From a virus (Duplodnaviria; Caudoviricetes): a stretch of DNA of 64,000 bases. The position numbers and the translations under genes were made by a program. Position 1 is the first letter of the stretch. The number at the start of each line of letters is the position of its first letter. Of this stretch, positions 712-64,000 are shown piece after piece. Location of the stretch: positions 32,001 to 96,000 of the IMG/VR virus record IMGVR_UViG_3300001528_000378, one strand, 5' to 3'. The notes beneath the pieces were generated by a model. It did no database searches, was not told where the DNA came from, and saw only the letters and a list, made by a program, of their open reading frames with translations.

Positions 712-789
712 ATGTTATTATTTACATTATTTTTATGTGCATTTGTTTTAATAGCGGTATATGCCATTGAAAGGGATTCCAAATATTAA
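712..789 (+). CDS. 25-aa hydrophobic peptide (MLLFTLFLCAFVLIAVYAIERDSKY), absent from the ORF track
   Basis: AGGAG RBS at 701-705, ATG at 712, TAA at 787-789, one base before the helicase ATG at 791. Confidence 0.55.
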   Translation: MLLFTLFLCAFVLIAVYAIERDSKY

Positions 790-790
790 T

Positions 791-3349
791 ATGAAAGCAA
801 TAATTGAAGTCGAGAACATAACTTCTAAAATTACAACACCCTTACCACAGGATGTCCAGTTTCTTTTAAGAGATAACCTGTCCTATGTGGTATCAGGTGC
901 TATGTTTTCAGAATATGCAAAGCAAGGTATGTGGGATGGGTGCAAACACTTGTATAGTATGAAAACACAGTCATTTCCAACTGGTTTACTAAGAAGGGTT
1001 CTAACAACTCTTAATGACTGTAGCTACAAATACGAAATAATTGATAATAGGGTTAAACCAGAATTAGGAAAGGAAATTAAATTAAAGAATATAAAATTAA
1101 GAGATTACCAAGAAGAAAGTGTAGATGTACTTTTTAATAAAACTAGAGGCTTATTGCATGCCGCAACCGCTAGTGGAAAAGGTGTAATTTTATCATCTTT
1201 ACTTGCAAAACTAAATATAAAATCACTTATTATTGTTCCAACAACCTCATTATTGCACCAAACGGCAAGTGTTATACAGAAAGTCCTAGGTGTAAAGGTT
1301 GGAAAGATAGGTGATTCTATTAAGGATATTAAAAAGATTACGGTTGCAACATTTCAGTCTTTGGTAGATTCCGACGACACCAAAAAAAGAAAACTAGATT
1401 CCGAAACAGGCAGGTGGAAAACAGTTGGTGCAAAGAAAATGGAAGTCAGAAAAGACTTGAAAGATTATTTTAATAGTGTAGAGTGTCTTATAACAGACGA
1501 ATGTTTTCCAGGATTAGAAAGAGTAAACACAGAGTATGGATATATGCCTATATCAAAGATTGTCTGTAATAAGATGTCACTTAAAGTGTGGAGTTTTAAC
1601 AAAGAAAAACAATTATTTGAATTAAAACCTGTAGTTAGGTACTTTGTTCACCATCATGAAGGAACTATGGTAAAGGTTACGTTTGGGAAGCACTCCTGTG
1701 TAAAATCAACACCTAATCATAAATATTATATTCTGGATAGTGGAAATATCATAGAAAAGAGGGCAGACGAGTTATTACCAGGGGATATGGTAATATCTAT
1801 GCCAAGGACAGGAACTAAGAAAGATAATATATCCACCTATGTAAATGAAGAACAAAAGCAAGTTATACTTGGTTCTATACTTGGTGATGGAAGCTTACGA
1901 GTTGAAAAAGATAATTGTAGACTAAGCTTATGCCAGGGAGAGAAACAACTAAATTACCTAAAGTGGAAAGTAGGGCTTCTTGGAAGTCTAATTAGTGAAA
2001 AAATTAAAGAGAGTAAAAGTGGATATTGTGATAACAGGGTATACCATACGTCCACGAGGATAACTGCGTACCTTAATCAGTATAACACATCAGACGAGAG
2101 AAGAATTATCAGGGTTCTTAATAATATAAATGATATGGGCGTTGCCATTTGGTTTATGGATGACTCTTCACTTGCAGGCAGTAGTTATAGGCTTCATACA
2201 GAGTCTTACACCTATAATATACAAGAGTTATTTGTAGCCTTTTTTATGTGTAGGTATTCTATATGCCCAAAAATATTATCATGTAATAAGAATAATAAAA
2301 CATACTATTATTTGACTTTCAGTAAAAAGGATTCAGTGGTAATTAGTAATATTTTATGCAAATATGGTGTAGCATCAATGGAATACAAGGTACTACCTAC
2401 TCATAGTATAAGCTATTACAATAGCCGTGAAGATCAGCTTAATTATGGGGTGTCAGTAGTAAAGAGTATAGAAAAATATGATTATGATGGTAATGTATAT
2501 AACATCGAGGTAGAGGGAAACCACAACTACTTAGTTGGTAATAATAAATTGGTGTCAAATTGTCATCACATTATATCGCAGTCCATACAAAAAGTATATG
2601 AAGCCTGTCCAAATGCTTATTATAGGTATGGGTTATCTGCAACACCCTTCTCAGATAGAGATGAGGATGTATTAATTGAAGCAGCCACAGGTAGGGTATT
2701 AAAAGAGTTATCTGCGTCTTATTTAATTAGTAAAGGTTGGTTATCAAAACCCACTATACATTTAGTACCATATAAACAACAAAGAGGTGGAAACTCTACA
2801 ACTTATGCAGGTTTGTATAAAGAAAAGATAACTGAAAATGAGGAAAGGAATAAGCTATTAACAAAGATTATATCTATGCGTGCAGATATGGGGGATAGTG
2901 TACTTGTATCTGTAAGATACTTAGAACATGGTAAAACACTTTATAATATGTTAGTTGATAAGTACGGGGACGATGTTGTGTTTGTAAATTCTAGTGTATC
3001 AACTAATAGACTAAATGAAGTGTTAAAAGACTTATCTAAAAAGAAACTCAAAATATGTATCAGCACATCTATTTTGCAAGAAGGAGTGGACGTACCATCA
3101 TTAAATACATTGGTGATGGCTGGTAGTCCAAAATCCAAGATTGCAACGATGCAGTTGGTTGGTCGTGTATTGAGAAAGACAGATGATAAAAGTACGGTGG
3201 ACGTATATGACATCCAGGATTATAATACCAAATATTTTTCCTCATCTGCCAAAGAGCGGTTTAATATTTATAGTTCAGAGCCAGAGTTCATTTTAAAAGA
3301 GGATACTATGTTCGAGCCAAGTAATAGTACACTTGACAAATCAAACTAA
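791..3349 (+). CDS. SF2 (UvsW/XPB-like) helicase interrupted by an intein
   Basis: Q-motif LRDYQ, Walker A ATASGKG, DE|CHH split by the intein, SAT, EGVDVP, QLVGRVLR. Likely start is ATG 791 (MKAIIEV). Confidence 0.9.
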   Translation: MKAIIEVENITSKITTPLPQDVQFLLRDNLSYVVSGAMFSEYAKQGMWDGCKHLYSMKTQSFPTGLLRRVLTTLNDCSYKYEIIDNRVKPELGKEIKLKNIKLRDYQEESVDVLFNKTRGLLHAATASGKGVILSSLLAKLNIKSLIIVPTTSLLHQTASVIQKVLGVKVGKIGDSIKDIKKITVATFQSLVDSDDTKKRKLDSETGRWKTVGAKKMEVRKDLKDYFNSVECLITDECFPGLERVNTEYGYMPISKIVCNKMSLKVWSFNKEKQLFELKPVVRYFVHHHEGTMVKVTFGKHSCVKSTPNHKYYILDSGNIIEKRADELLPGDMVISMPRTGTKKDNISTYVNEEQKQVILGSILGDGSLRVEKDNCRLSLCQGEKQLNYLKWKVGLLGSLISEKIKESKSGYCDNRVYHTSTRITAYLNQYNTSDERRIIRVLNNINDMGVAIWFMDDSSLAGSSYRLHTESYTYNIQELFVAFFMCRYSICPKILSCNKNNKTYYYLTFSKKDSVVISNILCKYGVASMEYKVLPTHSISYYNSREDQLNYGVSVVKSIEKYDYDGNVYNIEVEGNHNYLVGNNKLVSNCHHIISQSIQKVYEACPNAYYRYGLSATPFSDRDEDVLIEAATGRVLKELSASYLISKGWLSKPTIHLVPYKQQRGGNSTTYAGLYKEKITENEERNKLLTKIISMRADMGDSVLVSVRYLEHGKTLYNMLVDKYGDDVVFVNSSVSTNRLNEVLKDLSKKKLKICISTSILQEGVDVPSLNTLVMAGSPKSKIATMQLVGRVLRKTDDKSTVDVYDIQDYNTKYFSSSAKERFNIYSSEPEFILKEDTMFEPSNSTLDKSN
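1502..2560 (+). mobile_element. Intein (353 aa) with LAGLIDADG homing endonuclease, inserted in the helicase DExH motif
   Basis: Starts CFPGLERV after DE and ends VYNIEVEGNHNYLVGNNKLVSN before the +1 Cys. Endonuclease motifs ILGSILGDGSL and AIWFMDDSS. Confidence 0.9.
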
Positions 3350-3367: not shown

Positions 3368-3697
3368 ATGAAACCTTTTGACCTTTATAGATTTGTAATC
3401 TCTCTTACAAGAGAGCCTTATAATACAAAAAAACTTCCTTTTTATTTGGCGAGGGCGAAGAGCGCATTAACCAAATTAAAGGGTATGAACTGGGAAGACG
3501 AGGATATAAAGACTATTGTTTGTAAGGTAGTATCAATCACTTCCAGTGGTTGTTATCCAAATACTTATCAGTATATTATAGGTGTACTAAATAATATTAG
3601 AATATCTCCCCTTATGAAGTCTACAAGTGAGGAAGTAGATAAGGAATATATGGATTGGATTAAACAAGAGATTGAGAGGATTAAGAACAATGCTTAG
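3368..3697 (+). CDS. Hypothetical protein upstream of the helicase loader (possible initiator-like)
   Basis: ORF with its own promoter, overlapping the start of the DnaC-like gene. Function is inferred from position only. Confidence 0.55.
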   Translation: MKPFDLYRFVISLTREPYNTKKLPFYLARAKSALTKLKGMNWEDEDIKTIVCKVVSITSSGCYPNTYQYIIGVLNNIRISPLMKSTSEEVDKEYMDWIKQEIERIKNNA

Positions 3698-4382
3698 TCA
3701 GTTAGACTTAAACTATTTAGAGTTATATAAGAAAAAGTATGTATTAGGATGCCCAATTTGTGGTGGCAGAGATTCTTATTGTAATTGCTGGCGTAAGTAC
3801 AACAATGAAATCAAAAAGATTTCGGCTGGTATTCCAGTTAAATATAGAAATTACACAATGAAAGACTTTACACACCCACAATTAAAACAGCAGAAAGAGT
3901 TTGTAGAATCCATTATTAGTGATTTTGATAATTTAAGGTTATCTGGTAGGGTGCTGTATTTTTATGGTTCTTCTGGTACGGCAAAAACAATGTCTGCAAT
4001 TTTAGTTTCTTGTGAAGGTATCAGAAGGGGATATAAGGTACACTATTACGAGTCTTTACAGGCAATTTCTACACTATTAAAACAGGCTTGGTCTTCTGAT
4101 GAACCTGCTTCTGTAGCAAATGACATTACATTATCTGATTTAATTGTAGTAGATAATTTGGGGTCTGAGAATATATCCAATGAAAATATCAAGTCGGAAA
4201 TCTATAACTTGTTTAAGCAAAGAAGTTATAATTGTCTACCTACTATTTTTATTGCTCCTGTATCTATTAAGGACTTGAAATTACAATTAGACAAGAACAT
4301 TGTAGAGCTATTTGATTGCAACCAGATTACTTCGGTTCAATTCAAAGGATTTGACTATCGTAAAGAAGTGTTGGAGAAATAA
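3690..4382 (+). CDS. DnaC/IstB-like AAA+ helicase loader
   Basis: N-terminal CPICGG...CNC zinc motif, GIPVKY, Walker A GSSGTAKT, Walker B LIVVDNLG; lies directly before DnaB. Confidence 0.8.
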   Translation: MLSQLDLNYLELYKKKYVLGCPICGGRDSYCNCWRKYNNEIKKISAGIPVKYRNYTMKDFTHPQLKQQKEFVESIISDFDNLRLSGRVLYFYGSSGTAKTMSAILVSCEGIRRGYKVHYYESLQAISTLLKQAWSSDEPASVANDITLSDLIVVDNLGSENISNENIKSEIYNLFKQRSYNCLPTIFIAPVSIKDLKLQLDKNIVELFDCNQITSVQFKGFDYRKEVLEK

Positions 4383-20390: not shown

Positions 20391-20725
20391 CATATATTTT
20401 ATTTTTTCTAATCTTATTTGCACTTGCATTATTGTGTGTTTTATTGTATAATTTGGGTGTGCTAGTTATATCCTATTGGTTAATGCGACTAAGTGTTAAA
20501 CCGATGGATATTGAAACCACATTTGAAAAGGTACAAAAAACAGTTCAGGATGGGTATTATGTTTCTGGGGGGCATGAACCTGTATTCTGGAAAGATAATA
20601 CTAGAATTTATATTAAGCACAATAAAATTATCCAAGTAGAGGACGGGTATGCTTGCTGTTTTTACATTGGGAATTTTATTGATTTTGTTAAATTTGTACA
20701 CTTTATTCAGGAGTATCAAGAATAA
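20387..20725 (+). CDS. Hypothetical membrane-anchored protein
   Basis: Hydrophobic N-terminal ~30 aa; AAGGAG upstream. Confidence 0.6.
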   Translation: MTYILFFLILFALALLCVLLYNLGVLVISYWLMRLSVKPMDIETTFEKVQKTVQDGYYVSGGHEPVFWKDNTRIYIKHNKIIQVEDGYACCFYIGNFIDFVKFVHFIQEYQE

Positions 20726-23700
20726 TGCCTACTTATCAGCAATATATTAAAGAAGGACACACAAAGGAAGAAGCACAGGGATTAATTGACTCTAATCCCT
20801 GCACTTTCTGTTCTCTACAAAACAACCAAATTTGCATTAAAGCAAAAGGTTATGGTGCAGAACACCCAAAGTTTATGTTAGTTTCAGATTACATTAGAAG
20901 AAACTGGGCTACCAAATCTATGCCTTTTAGTGGTAATGTAGTTGGTGAATTACAGAAAGTATTTAAAGCGTCTAATATAAACCCAGCAGAAGTTTATTTT
21001 ACTTCACTGGTAAAGTGTTCTTCTGCCAAAAGTTTGAAGTATGGTGAAGATACAAAACCAAAAAAGGATAATATCACCTACTGTTCTGCTTATTTGGAAA
21101 AAGAAATTGCTGATAAAAAACCACAAGTTATTATTGCCTGTGGTCAAATTGCTTTGGATTACTTCTTTCCAAAGTTTAAAATGGCAGAAAAGAGATGCCA
21201 AGTATTAAAGGACGAAAAGCATAATTGTTTGGTAGTACCCATCTATAATCCAGAGGCTATGACCACAACTGCGGAGTTTGATAGGATTATTACCAAGGCA
21301 TTTCAACAAGCATATAATGCAGTTTATGCTCCAGAGAAATTAAAATTCCCGGATGTTAAGTATGTAAAAGTTACAACCCTTGATATGTTAAGACAGGTCT
21401 ATACTAGAATCAAAGAGGTTGATAGGATTGCATACGACTTAGAAACCAATGGGGTTGTATACAGAACGGCTAAAATCCTTTCTGTGGGTGTATCTTGGGC
21501 AAAGAATACAGGTGTATCCTGGCCATTATGGGTAAAAGACCAAGAAGCCTACAATAAAGCATTAGAGGGATTAAAGGGTAGTGAGCGCATTAAAATGGCT
21601 TCTAAACTTGATCATGACCCCTTTATTAAAAAATTCTGGAAAGATAGTGAGTGGGACGAAGTAATGTCCATTACCAAGAATATTTTTGAGAATACCAAAT
21701 GCAAGAAAGGGGGTCATAATACTTTTTTTGATAATTTAATTCTCCATTATAATGGTATTGAGGTGAACAACTACACCTATGATACAATGGTAATGAAACA
21801 TCTATTAGATGAAGATAGTGAGAAATCCTTAGATTACTGCTCTTGGATTTATACAGATAAGGGTGGGTATAAAATGGAAAAAGAAAAATACCTCAAATCT
21901 GATAAATCTAACTTCGCCAATATTCCATTAGACGTGCTATTGGAATATAACGCGGGGGACGCTGCTTGTACCTATGAACTATATGACGTGTTTAAACCAG
22001 AAATTTTAAAAGAAGGTTTGGCATATGAACTTGCACAAATCCGTATTCCCTTACAGAAAGCATTGATGGAAGCCTGTATTGCGGGCATGCCTGTTAATAT
22101 GGACTATGTAAGAAAGACTCGTGAAGATATCAGTAAACAGCTAAAGGATTTGGAAGAACAATTATTGCCTACTATTAAAAAGTATTATGGTGATAATGCT
22201 ACTATTGTATCTAATACAGAAGAAGCCAAAGAGTGTAAAAACCCATGGAACATTAACTCCGCTCAGTCATTGAGAGATTTGTTTTTCAATAAGTTGAAAT
22301 GCAAGAGTAGTGGAACTACATCCTCTGGTTCTCAAAGTACAGACGAAAGTGCCCTATTAAAACTCCAAAGGAAGGGTGTAAAAGAAGCAGAGTTAATCTT
22401 AAAAAGAAAGAAATTATTTAAGTTTAAGACTACTTATTTGGACGATATTGAAAACATCCTAGACGAAAATAATAGGGTGCATCCTTCGTTTTCAGTTACT
22501 GGTACTGCATGTATAACGGGTGACACACTACTTCTTACAGATTCTGGATATAATCGCATGGATTCTTTGGGGGAATACAAAGAAGGTGAGTTTATACCAA
22601 AGGAATACACCATTATCAATGCAAATAAGGATGTTGAGAAGTCTAGTCATATCATTAAGTATTCTAATGTCCCAACTATTAGGATTGATACAAAATATGG
22701 GTTCCATATTGAGGGGACACACAACCATCCTGTAAAAGTAGGCAAACCAAGACAACAAAATTATAGGTACAAAGGTAATTTGGTTAAATTTAAAAAACAA
22801 GGTTTTGATACACAATTTAAGACTTTAGACAGCATTAAAGAGGGCGATTATATCGAATTAGCACTTAATACTAATGTGTTTCCAAGTAAGTATGTGCAAA
22901 CAAACCTTAAACCTTATGATTTTAAAAAGAAGCCTTATATTGCTGGAAAAATACCAGAAGTGTACAATGAAGATTTTGCGGAGTTTTTGGGAATGTATAT
23001 GAGTGATGGTTCTATTAATACAAGTAATGGCTCGTTTAGAATAACCATTACTAATGACGACCCATATGTTCAGGATAGAGTGAAATACTTAAATAAGGTA
23101 TTATTTGATGCTAATGTGTATGAATACAAAAAAAACAGAAAAGACATTTCGGATGTTTTATTAACAGGTGTGTTCTTGAGAGCATTAGAGCCTATTTTAC
23201 CTCGTGGAGCACATAATAAGTGTTTACCTATGGTTATGCTTAATTCCCCAAAATCTGTTGTATGTGCCTATATTAAGGGAAGAACACTAGATAGCACATA
23301 CATAAAGGAAAAGCACGAGTTAAAAATATCTGTTATGTCTAGCTTTGAGGCAGATTTTATACAACAATTTTTATTAAATATGGGTATTATTTCTTTCAGA
23401 AATACCTGCAAAGGAAGAAATGGGTATACCTATTATAGAATTGCTGTAAGTAATTCCAACTATGACAGGTTTAAGGAAGAAATTGGTGTAATAGAGCCAA
23501 AAAAATATGATTCTTCAAAATCAAAAGAAATGGAATCTTGCTTGTACAGTTTAGATTCAAAACAAATGCTTGTTAAAGTTATTGGTATTGAGCACAAAAC
23601 TAATGATGTGTATGATATACACGTTCCGAAAACACATAGTTTTGTGGCTGGTGGCATTGTGAATCATAACACTGGAAGGTTGTCTTCTAAGGATCCAAAT

Positions 23701-24501
23701 ATCCAGCAAATACCTCGTGATAAAACCATTAAGTGTATGTTTCAAGCACCAGAAGGGTATGAAATTGGTGAAGTGGACTTCTCACAGGCAGAATTAAGGG
23801 TTATGGCTGCTTTATCAAATGATACAAGTATGAAACGTATCTATGAGAGAGATGGAGATATTCATATGGAATTGGCAGTAGACTGTTTTAAAAAGCCTGC
23901 TTCTGAAATAACAAAGGATGAGCGCTCTATTGCAAAATCAATTAATTTCGGCATTGGGTATGGTGCTGGTGCTACTACACTTAAAGACACCCTAGAGGAT
24001 GCTGGTGTAATTATAACAAAGAATGAAGCTCAGAAATATATTGATACCTGGCATAAGAAGTTCAATATGGCATCATCATTCCTAATGGGGTGTAACAGAA
24101 GATTTATACAAACACACCTATTACAAACCCCTTTTGGTAGGCGTAGGCGTATGTTTAAGGATTTTAAAGACGACTATATTACACAAGCAAAAGGTAGAGA
24201 GGGTCAAAACTTTGTTATACAGGGGTGCGCTGCAGAAATAGCATTCTTATCCCTTATCAATATATCTCGTGAAGTTAAAAAGTTTGGTGGTAGGGTAATA
24301 TCCACCGTCCATGACTCTATCTTAATTGAGTATCCAGTTGAACAAAGAAAGAATATTGCTCACATTTGTAAGAAGTATACTTGGGTTACATACCCATTCT
24401 TAAATGGACTGTATATGAATAGCGACTTGGAAGCTGCAAAAGAATGGGGAAATAAAAAGCCAGTTAACATGGATACCGGGGAGTTTGAAAAAGATGATTA
24501 G
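20725..24501 (+). CDS. Family A DNA polymerase with N-terminal family-4 UDG-like domain, 3'-5' exonuclease and intein
   Basis: CTFCSL...PFSG...TSLVKC...YC UDG-like domain; YDLET exonuclease motif; TGRLSS; motif A DFSQAELR; motif B KSINFGIGYG; motif C VHDS. Confidence 0.93.
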   Translation: MPTYQQYIKEGHTKEEAQGLIDSNPCTFCSLQNNQICIKAKGYGAEHPKFMLVSDYIRRNWATKSMPFSGNVVGELQKVFKASNINPAEVYFTSLVKCSSAKSLKYGEDTKPKKDNITYCSAYLEKEIADKKPQVIIACGQIALDYFFPKFKMAEKRCQVLKDEKHNCLVVPIYNPEAMTTTAEFDRIITKAFQQAYNAVYAPEKLKFPDVKYVKVTTLDMLRQVYTRIKEVDRIAYDLETNGVVYRTAKILSVGVSWAKNTGVSWPLWVKDQEAYNKALEGLKGSERIKMASKLDHDPFIKKFWKDSEWDEVMSITKNIFENTKCKKGGHNTFFDNLILHYNGIEVNNYTYDTMVMKHLLDEDSEKSLDYCSWIYTDKGGYKMEKEKYLKSDKSNFANIPLDVLLEYNAGDAACTYELYDVFKPEILKEGLAYELAQIRIPLQKALMEACIAGMPVNMDYVRKTREDISKQLKDLEEQLLPTIKKYYGDNATIVSNTEEAKECKNPWNINSAQSLRDLFFNKLKCKSSGTTSSGSQSTDESALLKLQRKGVKEAELILKRKKLFKFKTTYLDDIENILDENNRVHPSFSVTGTACITGDTLLLTDSGYNRMDSLGEYKEGEFIPKEYTIINANKDVEKSSHIIKYSNVPTIRIDTKYGFHIEGTHNHPVKVGKPRQQNYRYKGNLVKFKKQGFDTQFKTLDSIKEGDYIELALNTNVFPSKYVQTNLKPYDFKKKPYIAGKIPEVYNEDFAEFLGMYMSDGSINTSNGSFRITITNDDPYVQDRVKYLNKVLFDANVYEYKKNRKDISDVLLTGVFLRALEPILPRGAHNKCLPMVMLNSPKSVVCAYIKGRTLDSTYIKEKHELKISVMSSFEADFIQQFLLNMGIISFRNTCKGRNGYTYYRIAVSNSNYDRFKEEIGVIEPKKYDSSKSKEMESCLYSLDSKQMLVKVIGIEHKTNDVYDIHVPKTHSFVAGGIVNHNTGRLSSKDPNIQQIPRDKTIKCMFQAPEGYEIGEVDFSQAELRVMAALSNDTSMKRIYERDGDIHMELAVDCFKKPASEITKDERSIAKSINFGIGYGAGATTLKDTLEDAGVIITKNEAQKYIDTWHKKFNMASSFLMGCNRRFIQTHLLQTPFGRRRRMFKDFKDDYITQAKGREGQNFVIQGCAAEIAFLSLINISREVKKFGGRVISTVHDSILIEYPVEQRKNIAHICKKYTWVTYPFLNGLYMNSDLEAAKEWGNKKPVNMDTGEFEKDD
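22510..23670 (+). mobile_element. Intein (387 aa) with LAGLIDADG endonuclease in the polymerase
   Basis: GTA|CITGDT...VYDIHVPKTHSFVAGGIVNHN|TGRLSS; FLGMYMSDGS motif. Confidence 0.92.
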
Positions 24502-60051: not shown

Positions 60052-62272
60052 CTATTTTACAATTTCCACCATAAAGTTTTCCCTCCAAAAATCGTTCTCT
60101 GTAACCTCTCTAAAAATAGAGGTACTATCAAAAACTTTGGGAGAATATCCCCTAACAAAAGTAGTTCTATTAATTTTGGTAACATACTTACCAGTATTTT
60201 TATCCTTTATGATAAACTTAATAGACGAAGCACCATCCATCAAAGCCTTGTATAATGCTTCCCTACCTTCTTTATAGAAGGCTTGTCTTAAAGCTTCAGC
60301 TCTATTAAGAAAATGTTTCTTATTCCTGCTGGTAGAGGCGTACTTTAACGCTTTATTATATAGCGTATAAATACGATCATACTTTTTTAGGTACCCAAAG
60401 TACCTAGCTAAATTTGCCACGTCCAAATATTTGTTTTTTCCCTTTTGAAACTCTCCGTGCAAATAGTCCAAAAGGATTCTTTTTTCCAATTCCCCCCTAC
60501 TATACCCTTCATTTTTCCCAAGCGTCCACTTATTATAATATTTTGGAAACTCGTTGCTAGAGGCGGACACAACATCTGCCACATACCCATTATCCCCTTT
60601 TCGTACCCTTAAATTTTTTACAATTTCGTAAGACATATACCCCCCTATTTATTAATGTTAATTGTACCCTCTTTGATCAATTTTTCAATCCCCTTTTTAT
60701 TAAGGAATTTATTATCAATGCTACTATATTCTTTTAAAAATAAGTAGAGATGTCTCAATGTCGTACGGGAATAATCCCAGTCTTTATACAAGGTTACTTT
60801 ATTTCTACTAACACTAGCAATTAAAGACTTATAGGATTGGAAATAAACAGTCCCCTCATTTGAAATAATGTATTGATTGTTATGATAATATTTCTTTACA
60901 AGCATATTAAACCTCCTTTTTTGGTATATTATTAGATGCTTATCTTAAAACAAGCACAAGCGGATATAGGCGGATAGGATGGGGGGCAGTTAGCGGTCCG
61001 CCCAATAGGTAAATGTGTTTAACTTTTCAGCCCCGTATTTTTTCCACCAAACAGAGAGTCTTTTTTCAAAGTCCGCCAAAACTTTTTTATAGGCGGATAT
61101 AATCATTTCCCGCTCCGCTTTATCCAAACATACCACGGGTATAACATCTGGCATTTTTTCGTGCTTTTTTAATCCGTTTTCAATTTCCCCGCAATCCGTT
61201 AAATGATCATAATTCTCCCATACCAATCTAGCAGTTCCGTTGTACAAGTACATCACCCCAAGCACATAGGGGTATTGCATACAATTTTCCCTTTCCAAAG
61301 TCTGCACAATTTTCTGTAATTCTTTGGTATTTCGGTAGATAAAATAATCCTTCATTTTATCCTTATTTTTAAGCAAATCCTTATAAAGCTCAAAGTTTGG
61401 ACCTTCATCATAAAAGCTGAAGTTTTTTTCAATACAGGGCTGATTAATTCCCAATATAGTACCATTAAATTGCACAGCATCGGCGGTATGTTTTTGCAAC
61501 CCTTTGGCCATCCTTTCATTGGTAGGCCAATTTCTTTTGGCATATACTTTTATTAGTTCTTTCATAAATACCTCCCCCCCCTATTAAGGACGTAGGGGGC
61601 AACCATCTAATTTTCCACAATCCGGAGTTTCCGCGTCAAGGCACGGGCAAATATAAGTAATAAAAGTCTCGTCAAAGCCCCTAGTTTCTGCGCGGATGGG
61701 GCAATCTATACAATTTTTAGGAAATGGGATATTTATCTTTGTCATAAGTACAACCCCCTATTAGATACCTAAAATAATCTTATAGGTATCTGTCTTTTTT
61801 AGATATTTTATAGATACCACGTAACAATTCCACGATTTAAGTGTATCATCAAAAACGGTTACGTCATCCGCAAGTTCAAAGTGCTCCCTATAAATGACAA
61901 ATACACATTTTTCATTATCATAATAATCTGTATTTTTTAAAATTATGGTAGTCATAGTATACCTCCTTATAAGTCGCAAACCAAAGAATAAACATATCTA
62001 CAAAGTGTATTATATTGTTTATTCTGCCAATAGTCAAGTAAAATATCTTTTTTATCGGCAAGAATTGCGTTCATTTTCTCTAACTTTTTACTAGACTTGC
62101 GCCCCTCTAATAAGGTAAAGTAAAAATTTCCCTCGTCAAAAGGGGAGTACTCCGAAATAGTTATTCCACCAAGTTTGCGCTCCCTTTCTTTCTGGACGTG
62201 TAGGTTATATTCCCCCTCGCTATGTGAAATATGTATATCTAAAACAAAATTATTTTCTAATGCTACTTTCAT
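60052..62272 (-). CDS. First-transcribed small genes (60052..60636, 60645..60905, 60990..61565, Cys-rich 61584..61745, 61761..61955, 61967..62272)
   Basis: Co-oriented ORFs with GGAGG or G-run RBSs, downstream of the promoter array. Confidence 0.65.
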
Positions 62273-62883
62273 AATACTACCTCCCTTGGTACTCCTATTC
62301 CATTATATAATCACACACGCCCCCCCCCATATGGCGGTTTGTGGCGGATATGATTGTATAATGGAGGGGGTATATTTAACTAGGTTAGGTACTTATATTT
62401 TGTACCTTCTATTGTACCCCCCTCCTTTTTTTTTTACATTTATTTCCTTTTTTTAGTGTTTGATTAATTAACAAGGGAAATCACCCCCGCCATCACGGCC
62501 TAGGCCTTTTATTTGGTATCATAGTTCTATTTTTGGTACAAACATAATGCAATATCTTATATGATCTCATATATCCTACCTTCACACTAGTATATTGATC
62601 CTCCCCTATTATTTTTTGCCGTGCAAAAATAAGTTAGGTTATCACTTTATATTAGATGTTGGGAGTTACTTTTTATGTGCCACATATCCCTTTTTACATT
62701 ATTTTTGTATCAATTTTTCCAATAGTTATATTGGTATATTTTTTGATACTTTTCTTAAATTATCAAAGATCCGTATTTTAATTATTTATCATATTTGCTT
62801 ATCAATCCTAATAATTTGATGCTATCTGGTTATCATCCATTGATAAACTCTTTATGACTGGTTTTTAAAATACCACTGTATAC

Positions 62884-63728
62884 ATTATAGCATATTATAA
62901 TATCATTGTCAATAGTCTTTTAATGATACATATGCAAACTAATAAAGATAGATTGTACGACTATATCCGTACCGCTCTCTATATAGGTATACTTGTAAAG
63001 ATCTATGAGCTCCTTTTAACATTAGCCCCTCGTTTCCTTCATACTTATATTATAGCATATTTTACTACTCTTGTCAATACCTTTTTTATTTTAGAGGTGG
63101 TATTTGTTTTCCCCTATACTTATAGCATAGCATATTTGGTTTTGATTGTCAAGGCACTTTTCCAAGTCCGTTTGATCTTTACCATCTGCTTTACTATACT
63201 TATATGTTAGCAAATTTTGATATTGATGTCAAGCCCTATTTTTATTCTTTTAGAGGCACTTGCAAATATCTTTTTTGCTCCCTTCATACTTATATTATAG
63301 CATATTTTGGAACTAATGTCAAGGCGCTTTTTCCAAGCCCTTCAATTAATACCCTTCTGCTATACATATATTATAACAAATAAATTTAACATTGTCAAGG
63401 GCCTTTTTTATCCCCTTATAATTCCTTATCTGCTATACTTATATATTAGCATATTTTACGGATTATGTCAAGGCCTTAATTTTAAAACACTTTTTTAATA
63501 GTGGTATATTATACCATATTATGATGCTTAAGTCAATACCCTTTTTTATGTGTTTATTAGCTTACGGCCTGGGCCTCTAATGATATTTTACAATTTTAAA
63601 AGACAGATGTCAATAGGTATTTTTATTCTATTTTACCCATATCCTATATTTTACCATATTATTAGACAGATGTCAATAGGCTTTTTATCCCATCTTTACA
63701 TTATATCATATTTGAAGCATTTTGTCAA
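62884..63728 (-). repeat. Array of 11 tandem sigma70-type promoters
   Basis: -35 boxes (TGTCAA/AGTCAA on +) start at 62907, 63072, 63147, 63227, 63317, 63393, 63466, 63531, 63608, 63671 and 63723. Each is exactly 17 bp from a TANNNT -10. Confidence 0.88.
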
Positions 63729-64000
63729 GTGCAGCTCATAGATTCCATTAATACATACTACCATAAAAACACGGAGAAACCCCTAGCAGAATCGTAACTT
63801 ATCCCTATATTTTAAGGGTTTTTAAAAAGTGCCCGTTTGTCTGTTTTATATCTATTTTAGGTATTTAATGGAGCATTTCATAGGTTAGTCTTATTATATG
63901 TTATCTAATGCAAATTAATTAGATATCTAATACTACAAAAGTTTAGCATCCCCTAGTGATTCCTTAATTTATCCCTATATTATAAGACTTTTCTTATCTA

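Follow-up and report, generated by a model that had tools for sequence, protein, structure and literature searches.

Phage T7 and the ribosomal RNA (rrn) operons of Bacillota provide the closest described counterparts of the element analysed here, an array of 11 tandem promoters with no genes between them on the minus strand of a phage genome. The stretch of DNA in which it lies, referred to below as the window, is 64,000 nucleotides long and corresponds to bases 32001-96000 of the 158,131-bp IMG/VR virus record IMGVR_UViG_3300001528_000378. Positions are those of the window unless marked as genome coordinates, which follow the numbering of the record, and this phage record (G000) is the reference for comparisons with relatives. 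In T7, 3-4 host promoters spaced by ~125 bp occupy a defined end of the genome and also drive its entry into the cell, and the early region, which includes the RNase III site R0.3 and gene 0.3, has a structured leader before the first early gene. In 1998, Stewart et al. reportedly described 12 promoters (PE1-PE12) in about 11.5 kb of the host-takeover module of phage SPO1. In the promoter islands of Escherichia coli, the sites overlap and face both ways. These islands are loci rich in promoter-like sequences that lie beside transcriptionally inactive, horizontally acquired genes (PMC3661553, PMC7054387). The T7 host promoters A0-A3 are followed by a boxA element, and unchecked A0-A3/boxA transcription harms the phage (PMC3709561). 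In Bacillus subtilis, a small 5' hairpin immediately precedes the rrn boxA (consensus AUGAUCUUUGAAA), which is bound by NusB (PMC13753749).

The array appears to be an extreme variant of the rrn/T7-type control region, in which tandem promoters are combined with boxA, and not a new kind of element. Judged from its sequence, it is probably an enlarged early super-promoter of this type, serving as the control region of the phage's early transcription unit. A preliminary description of this DNA had set the array apart from known strong early promoters that sit at gene starts. Gene-free tandem promoters are not without precedent, however: rrn operons of Bacillota contain 3-5, spaced as in the phage, and A0-A3 with boxA are present in T7. 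Within the literature on tandem or clustered phage promoters, we found no description of a gene-free array this large.

For the cellular counterparts, one genome per prokaryotic species was scanned for three TTGACA-17-TAnnnT promoters 20-50 bp apart, which returned at least 120 loci. Among the matches listed, and after exact-period repeats were set aside, the arrays have 3-6 promoters, are mostly from Bacillota and often lie at contig ends. A 16S rRNA gene is directly downstream in 8 of the 14 loci checked with Rfam. The rrn regions of eight genomes contain 3-5 promoters with periods of 61-87 bp and A-rich upstream tracts, and behind the last promoter come a small hairpin and then a boxA (e.g., TCGGTCTTTGAAAACTAAAC, TAGATCTTTGAAAACTAAAC) at +19 to +46. 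The rrn regions L225, L254, L222, L230, L298, L209, L324 and L255, from diverse Bacillota, make a useful reference set for rrn promoter architecture; their boxA comes after the last promoter only, and many of their promoters are followed by short GTCGC…GCGAC-type sequences. The exact-period arrays in bacterial metagenome-assembled genomes (66, 33, 29, 50 and 54 bp) were set aside as tandem repeats or probable clustered regularly interspaced short palindromic repeat (CRISPR) arrays. In four such contigs (L250, L253, L213 and L306), exact 65-67-bp arrays of 10-32 copies have a repeat that contains a TTGACA-17-TAnnnT match, and these are probably CRISPR arrays or tandem repeats rather than promoter batteries.

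The phage array shares with the Bacillota rrn regions its gene-free tandem sigma-A promoters, its A-rich tracts and its spacing (periods of 52-90 bp, against 61-87 bp in rrn), as well as a small hairpin and boxA-type motif (a putative boxA in the phage) ~20-45 nt after a -10, followed by a long structured RNA. Unlike them, it has 11 promoters, or 14 with three located further upstream, compared with the 3-5 sampled in rrn regions (a single locus has six, with its rRNA unconfirmed). Its product would be a leader and protein genes instead of rRNA, and it has two boxA-like motifs, with the hairpin-boxA pair behind the penultimate promoter. Whereas rrn units seem to start at G (…aatGTCGC), those of the phage seem to start at A (ATAAGT-A-TAG). 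Outside the motifs, the two show no sequence homology.

With T7, the array has in common that strong host-polymerase promoters stand in tandem with no genes between them and are followed by boxA (putative in the array), a structured leader and the first early gene; it differs in its 11-14 promoters, its Gram-positive-type grammar (TRTG) and its unrelated 158-kb genome. The SPO1 module and the T5 pre-early region are likewise clusters of strong early host-polymerase promoters serving small host-takeover genes, but there each promoter heads its own small operon, whereas the array packs 11 promoters, with nothing in between, into 845 bp. Polymerase-binding sites are unusually dense in E. coli promoter islands as well (PMC3661553). 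In contrast to these islands, the array consists of discrete, co-oriented sites close to the consensus, and conservation can be followed in each single unit.

Anatomy and conservation of the array

The units (Table 1) were located with a promoter scan and, independently, with a regular expression for TTGACA/T-17-TAnnnT, and all of them face the same way on the minus strand. The preliminary description had listed their hexamers, spacers, extended -10 elements, A-tracts, periods and downstream motif, and it proved exact throughout. The -35 is TTGACA in ten units and TTGACT in one, the spacer is 17 bp in 11/11, and the -10 reads TATAAT in six units, TAAAAT in two and TAATAT, TAACAT or TATGCT in the others. 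An extended -10 TG is found in 10 of the 11 and UP-like A-tracts lie upstream, both of them accessory features of strong Gram-positive promoters, and ATA(A/T)GTAT follows six units. Successive periods are 52, 63, 77, 65, 73, 76, 90, 80, 75 and 165 bp (median near 75). With hexamer scores of 10-12 out of 12 and the exact spacer, every unit has the sequence elements of a sigma-70/sigma-A promoter. By chance, 0.0096 such sites would be expected per kb per strand (Markov-1 simulations), and elsewhere in the 158-kb genome any 850-bp interval holds at most three. The same promoter grammar precedes ~40 genes elsewhere in the genome. Together with strong GGAGG ribosome-binding sites, the TTGACA/TRTG/TATAAT grammar points to a Bacillota-type host.

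Table 1 Features of the array and its leader, in window coordinates. For each promoter unit, the higher coordinate is the start of the -35 hexamer.
Feature	Coordinates	Strand	Details
Promoter unit 1	63700..63728	-	TTGACA-17-TATAAT, extended -10 TG
Promoter unit 2	63648..63676	-	TTGACA-17-TAAAAT, TG; recent duplicate of genome 96429 promoter
Promoter unit 3	63585..63613	-	TTGACA-17-TAAAAT, without TG
Promoter unit 4	63508..63536	-	TTGACT-17-TATAAT, TG; ortholog in all relatives (tag ATACCACTAT)
Promoter unit 5	63443..63471	-	TTGACA-17-TAATAT, TG
Promoter unit 6	63370..63398	-	TTGACA-17-TATAAT, TG
Promoter unit 7	63294..63322	-	TTGACA-17-TATAAT, TG
Promoter unit 8	63204..63232	-	TTGACA-17-TAACAT, TG
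Promoter unit 9	63124..63152	-	TTGACA-17-TATGCT, TG
Promoter unit 10 (penultimate)	63049..63077	-	TTGACA-17-TATAAT, TG
Promoter unit 11 (last)	62884..62912	-	TTGACA-17-TATAAT, TG
Small leader hairpin after unit 10, in boxB-like position	63003..63032	-	8 pairs
boxA-like motif 1	62993..63005	-	TAGATCTTTACAA; relatives ACGATCTTTAATA or ATGCTCTTTAAAG
Second small hairpin	62955..62972	-	GTACG/CGTAC; relatives ATACG/CGTAT, ATATG/CATAT
boxA-like motif 2	62761..62773	-	CGGATCTTTGATA; CAGATCTTTGAAA in L124 and L130
Conserved folded 3' leader domain	62289..62531	-	51 predicted pairs, 11 with compensatory changes
First operon gene	61967..62272	-	101 aa, strong GGGAGG ribosome-binding site, no family match

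Relatives of the phage were found through a 191-aa protein encoded 1.3 kb downstream of the array, by collecting its homologs from ENA and Logan assemblies (including Logan contigs of SRR29981081, SRR29133832 and SRR33880925). These homologs are 73-86% identical, and their contigs, whose names indicate gut metagenomes, carry a gene-free array at the same place. IMG/VR yielded no relatives in two peptide-pattern scans and a leader-motif scan, the three motif matches being chance hits in GC-rich contigs. The preliminary description had proposed looking for variable unit numbers in related phages, and such variation is present, with 8-11 units in the contiguous contigs (L124, 10-11; L125, L129 and L130, 9 each; L137, 9-10; L141, 8). 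L133 shows three units, an unreliable count on a scaffold with an N gap. The arrays are collinear across eight related contigs, with 70-76% identity to that of G000, single units can be traced as orthologs by the tags downstream of them, and the missing units look like the outcome of recombination between promoter cores.

All 71 units at the eight loci likewise score 10-12 out of 12 and have the 17-bp spacing. Their consensus is AAA..GGG..TTGACA…AATATG.TATAAT, and the start region TATAAT-ATAAGT-ATAG is conserved. For the individual elements, the annotation was made on G000 only and the aligned columns were read in five relatives. Identity is 96.6% in the -35 hexamer, 85.7% in the -10 hexamer, 83.3% from -18 to -13 (the TRTG region) and 75% in the 12 nt after the -10. 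It falls to 47% in the first 11 nt of the spacer and is 61% both in the 15 nt before the -35 and in the remaining filler between units. According to these alignments, the units are kept by selection as promoters, since the -35/17-bp/-10 geometry is better conserved than the filler. The preliminary description had named the opposite outcome, a geometry no more conserved than the intervening sequence, as its refutation, and its picture of a promoter battery fits both the high conservation of the promoter elements relative to spacer and filler and the variable number of units. Its statement that selection preserves only promoter elements was incorrect, as conservation extends to a hairpin with covariation, to both boxA-like motifs and to the folded 3' domain of the leader.

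The array extends past the window with three further co-oriented promoters at genome positions 96429, 96607 and 96669, which brings the total to 14 promoters and one tiny gene within ~2.8 kb (genome 94273-97110). The tiny gene is a 53-aa open reading frame (ORF) that is driven by the promoter at genome 96429 and ends in a strong terminator. Another strong terminator follows an HNH-like gene further upstream, and the two would insulate the array from upstream transcription. The array lies ~32 kb inside a 67-kb block of minus-strand genes, in a record whose ends overlap by 75 bp, as in circular assemblies.

Other classes of element were considered and rejected. As the preliminary description had stated, there are no credible ORFs or terminators between the units. 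ORFs of 25-95 aa occur on both strands of the array, but none is conserved, and the matches of four plus-strand (antisense) ORFs in relatives are only fragmentary and motif-driven; gene callers run on the relatives' arrays called nothing apart from one 49-aa ORF in L137. The sole terminator-like match is the weak hairpin at 62972-62955, which is unconvincing as a terminator, being missing in two relatives and having a weak T tail. A CRISPR array or simple tandem repeat does not fit periods that vary from 52 to 165 bp, with only the promoter elements in common and within-repeat spacers 47% identical. An array of small-RNA genes would need terminators between units and transcripts that are structured or conserved, but the former are lacking, the inter-unit transcripts are mostly unstructured and no stabler than shuffles (z above -1.2 in 8/11), and the filler shows the low identity given above. 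No tRNA and no Rfam family was found in the array region, nor any similarity match between this region and cultured phages.

Smaller arrays of the same design occur in unrelated viruses. The triple-promoter pattern was found at 57 loci in IMG/VR, and several unrelated viral contigs have arrays of 4-8 units with irregular periods of 50-100 bp, mostly in intergenic gaps directly upstream of same-strand genes (eight units in L181 and L169; six in L183; five in L192, L179, L189 and L157; four in several others). Three arrays from these viral contigs were searched and have no cultured-phage match. A single-promoter pattern with ATAAGTAT is too common in viral contigs to be informative. Going by these contigs, the tandem-promoter design is a recurring phage strategy, and none of the arrays found is larger than the present one. 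Among phages that depend on host polymerase, the design may be a general early strategy that has been under-described.

Leader, hairpins and boxA-like motifs

From the last -10 to the first start codon, the leader spans ~610 nt in G000 and a similar length in the relatives. The whole leader folds better than shuffled versions of itself (z = -6.6). The small hairpin after unit 10 has 94.6% of its cells paired in seven sequences and shows three compensatory pairs, a result reached by 3 of 500 shuffles. It stands immediately upstream of boxA-like motif 1, the arrangement expected of an rrn-type leader, and this motif sits 41-43 nt after the -10 of unit 10 in 8/8 loci. boxA-like motif 2 is found 110-124 nt after the last -10, at a fixed position in the eight loci, and forms a local peak of conservation (98th percentile). 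The two motifs match AUGAUCUUUGAAA at 9-11 of 13 positions, and the CAGATCTTTGAAA version of L124 and L130 matches the B. subtilis rrn boxA at 11/13; this consensus may not be that of the host. Both boxA-like motifs would presumably bind NusB/S10.

The last ~240 nt of the leader are the best-conserved non-coding sequence in the region. This 3' domain has no Rfam match and is a candidate for a new cis-regulatory RNA; its last element, immediately ahead of the ribosome-binding site, is a long hairpin (62364-62300). Within it are G runs of 6-9 nt, C runs of 7-9 nt and the direct repeat CCGCC-N5-CCGCC. Alternative folds can be drawn in which the C run pairs with either of two G runs, and an upstream GGCGG could pair with the leader's CCGCC.

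A run of small genes with strong ribosome-binding sites follows the 101-aa gene, and PHROGs and Pfam gave no assignment for the downstream proteins. That they are small, have strong ribosome-binding sites and match no known family suggests that these genes are early. In relatives L124, L125, L130, L137, L141 and L133, the first gene after the leader encodes an 88-aa DUF8033 protein, which is duplicated in L133. G000 is without this gene, and its conserved leader directly adjoins the 101-aa gene (62273-62300).

Proposed mechanism and alternatives

If the array is the control region of the phage's early genes, its operation can be outlined as follows. The 11 sigma-A-type promoters (14 with the upstream three), about one RNA-polymerase footprint apart, would each capture host holoenzyme on a single incoming genome. 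The units presumably all fire and, as there are no terminators between them, would contribute to a common downstream RNA. For near-consensus promoters, escape and not binding is generally regarded as the limiting step. Since they bind tightly and clear slowly, the flux from any one of them should saturate, and units in series could therefore raise the polymerase flux above the ceiling of a single promoter. The hairpin and boxA-like signal after unit 10, and the second signal after unit 11, would load Nus factors and so yield fast, termination-resistant polymerases, while the terminal structures of the leader may stabilise or process the mRNA. The small genes downstream could then be expressed as fast as the cell allows. 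More speculatively, starting at A, as opposed to the G of the sampled rrn promoters, may uncouple the units from GTP-linked control; if the units do start with ATP and not GTP, they would escape the GTP-linked stringent control that shuts Firmicutes rrn promoters. We also put forward, with considerable reserve, the bolder idea that the phage has taken and multiplied the control logic of host rrn operons. The array would then provide the incoming genome with the cell's strongest site of polymerase loading and antitermination and, at the same time, would compete specifically with rrn for sigma-A holoenzyme and NusB/S10, throttling ribosome synthesis as a by-product.

Several points weigh against a super-promoter. 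Tandem promoters may occlude one another, leaving an output that is less than additive. The promoter motifs also anchor the alignments, which somewhat inflates their apparent conservation. In simulated leaders, a chance boxA match of 10/13 arises in 21% and one of 11/13 in 1.9%, which makes a match weak when taken alone, and motif 1 of G000 scores only 9/13. In addition, the hairpin-boxA pair comes after the penultimate promoter here, while the boxA of rrn comes after the last, and the early timing of the downstream genes is deduced from their features.

A different emphasis would make the RNA itself the product, with the genes secondary: the battery would produce very large amounts of the ~610-nt leader, or of nested RNAs whose 5' ends vary, for use as a decoy, sponge or scaffold. 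Some phages do make abundant early non-coding RNAs, and stable RNAs are the normal product of rrn-type promoters. A long leader whose length is kept in the relatives, its strong overall fold, and a 3' end of 240 nt that combines the best non-coding conservation of the region with 11 compensatory pairs would all suit such a role. However, the leader leads into the first gene with no terminator in between, its last hairpin directly adjoins the ribosome-binding site as would be expected of an mRNA leader, the inter-unit transcripts are mostly unstructured and drift in sequence, and Rfam holds no match. We regard this reading as possible but on the unlikely side; it is compatible with a super-promoter and does not exclude it. 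Less probable is that the array works as a DNA-entry motor near the genome end that enters first, with host polymerases pulling the genome in as at T7 A1-A3. A convoy of polymerases would pull strongly, T7 has tandem host promoters near its leading end and a boxA behind them (PMC3709561), and the terminators, the conserved phased A-tract patch and the repeat elements before the array could mark a terminus or packaging site. Yet the 75-bp overlap of the record's ends is typical of circular assembly, the array is far inside its gene block, and the contigs of three relatives read straight through the upstream region. The nearest terminase, that of Bacillus phage G, is at 29% identity uninformative about the packaging type. 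Contig ends were also tried as a guide to the terminus, and in four relatives the contigs begin at four separate places. Taken together, a motor of this kind seems improbable.

We consider it very improbable that the array is a sink for polymerase and Nus factors, in which replicated genomes in their hundreds, each with 14 near-consensus promoters and boxA, deprive host promoters, above all those of rrn, of sigma-A holoenzyme, NusB and S10 and so contribute to host shut-off. The dense packing, in which each unit takes up roughly one footprint (median period, near 75 bp), and the grammar shared with host rrn promoters, which would allow direct competition, do agree with it. Two Pfam sigma-70 domain models, which divergent sigma factors could escape, recognised none in the phage, and this too speaks for a sink. 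But the ~40 other sigma-A-type promoters of the phage appear to be served by the same polymerase, so that a sink would hurt the phage as well, and T7 is indeed harmed by unchecked transcription of this kind (PMC3709561). One incoming copy would bind too few polymerases to matter early, leaving an effect possible only after replication, and a pure sink needs neither co-orientation nor boxA nor a conserved leader. Hardly credible, finally, is a set of non-productive promoters, either a polymerase-binding patch that silences or insulates like E. coli promoter islands or one that activates a nearby origin through transcription-driven supercoiling. Promoter islands do bind polymerase with little productive RNA (PMC3661553, PMC7054387), and the DNA immediately upstream of the array is AT-rich and bent and contains repeat elements; against this, the units are discrete, co-oriented, near-consensus, evenly spaced and individually orthologous across relatives, and putative signals of the antitermination type follow them.

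As a super-promoter, the array would be a natural extreme of the tandem-promoters-plus-boxA design, in which 11-14 promoters follow one another at intervals of one footprint; the sampled rrn regions of cells have fewer than half as many. It can serve as a test object for whether serial promoters add up or occlude one another, for the behaviour of polymerase convoys and for phage competition with rRNA operons for the transcription machinery. Arrays of this type may also supply compact, very strong expression modules for Gram-positive hosts.

Surroundings of the array

Between the array and the upstream 53-aa gene are copies of a 48-nt element, AAAAnnCTTAAAATATAGGGATAAnTTA…CTAGGGG, on the minus strand at 63775-63822 and 63945-63992, with a third copy beyond the window at genome 96731-96778. 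Related CCTTAAAATGCCCTA…-type sequences are present in the same region of the relatives, and the element could bind a protein, act as an iteron or be a promoter that another factor uses. Directly after a terminator, and also beyond the window, is a patch of phased A/T-tracts with TTTTGGAAAA (genome 96887-97050; L001 about 3590-3750). No other non-coding block upstream of the array is as well conserved in the relatives (83-86% identity), and a second TTTTGGAAAA patch is found at genome 86587. The HNH/homing-endonuclease-like ORF that adjoins this non-coding region has a C-terminal helix-turn-helix and lies beyond the window at genome 97106-97790 on the minus strand. It is missing at this place in the relatives, where its position is taken by a cluster of genes with a Tad3-family member (Pfam PF25185). 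Going by the family name, we take the Tad3-family gene just upstream of the relatives' array to be an anti-defence gene.

The GC content is ~33%. Genes in the window encode helicases, DnaB, GroEL, a DNA polymerase, a PNK-RNA ligase fusion and a clamp-loader-like ATPase, which belong to replication and nucleotide metabolism. None of the cultured phages is close, the best identity for DnaB among them being 27%, and the sole relative of the putative large terminase in the phage collection is Bacillus phage G gp1. Two of the replication proteins contain additional segments. An 862-aa helicase (761-3349, plus strand) has an internal LAGLIDADG homing-endonuclease-like segment at residues ~355-545, and a 1258-aa DNA polymerase (20725-24501, plus strand) has extra internal segments; both proteins may contain inteins.

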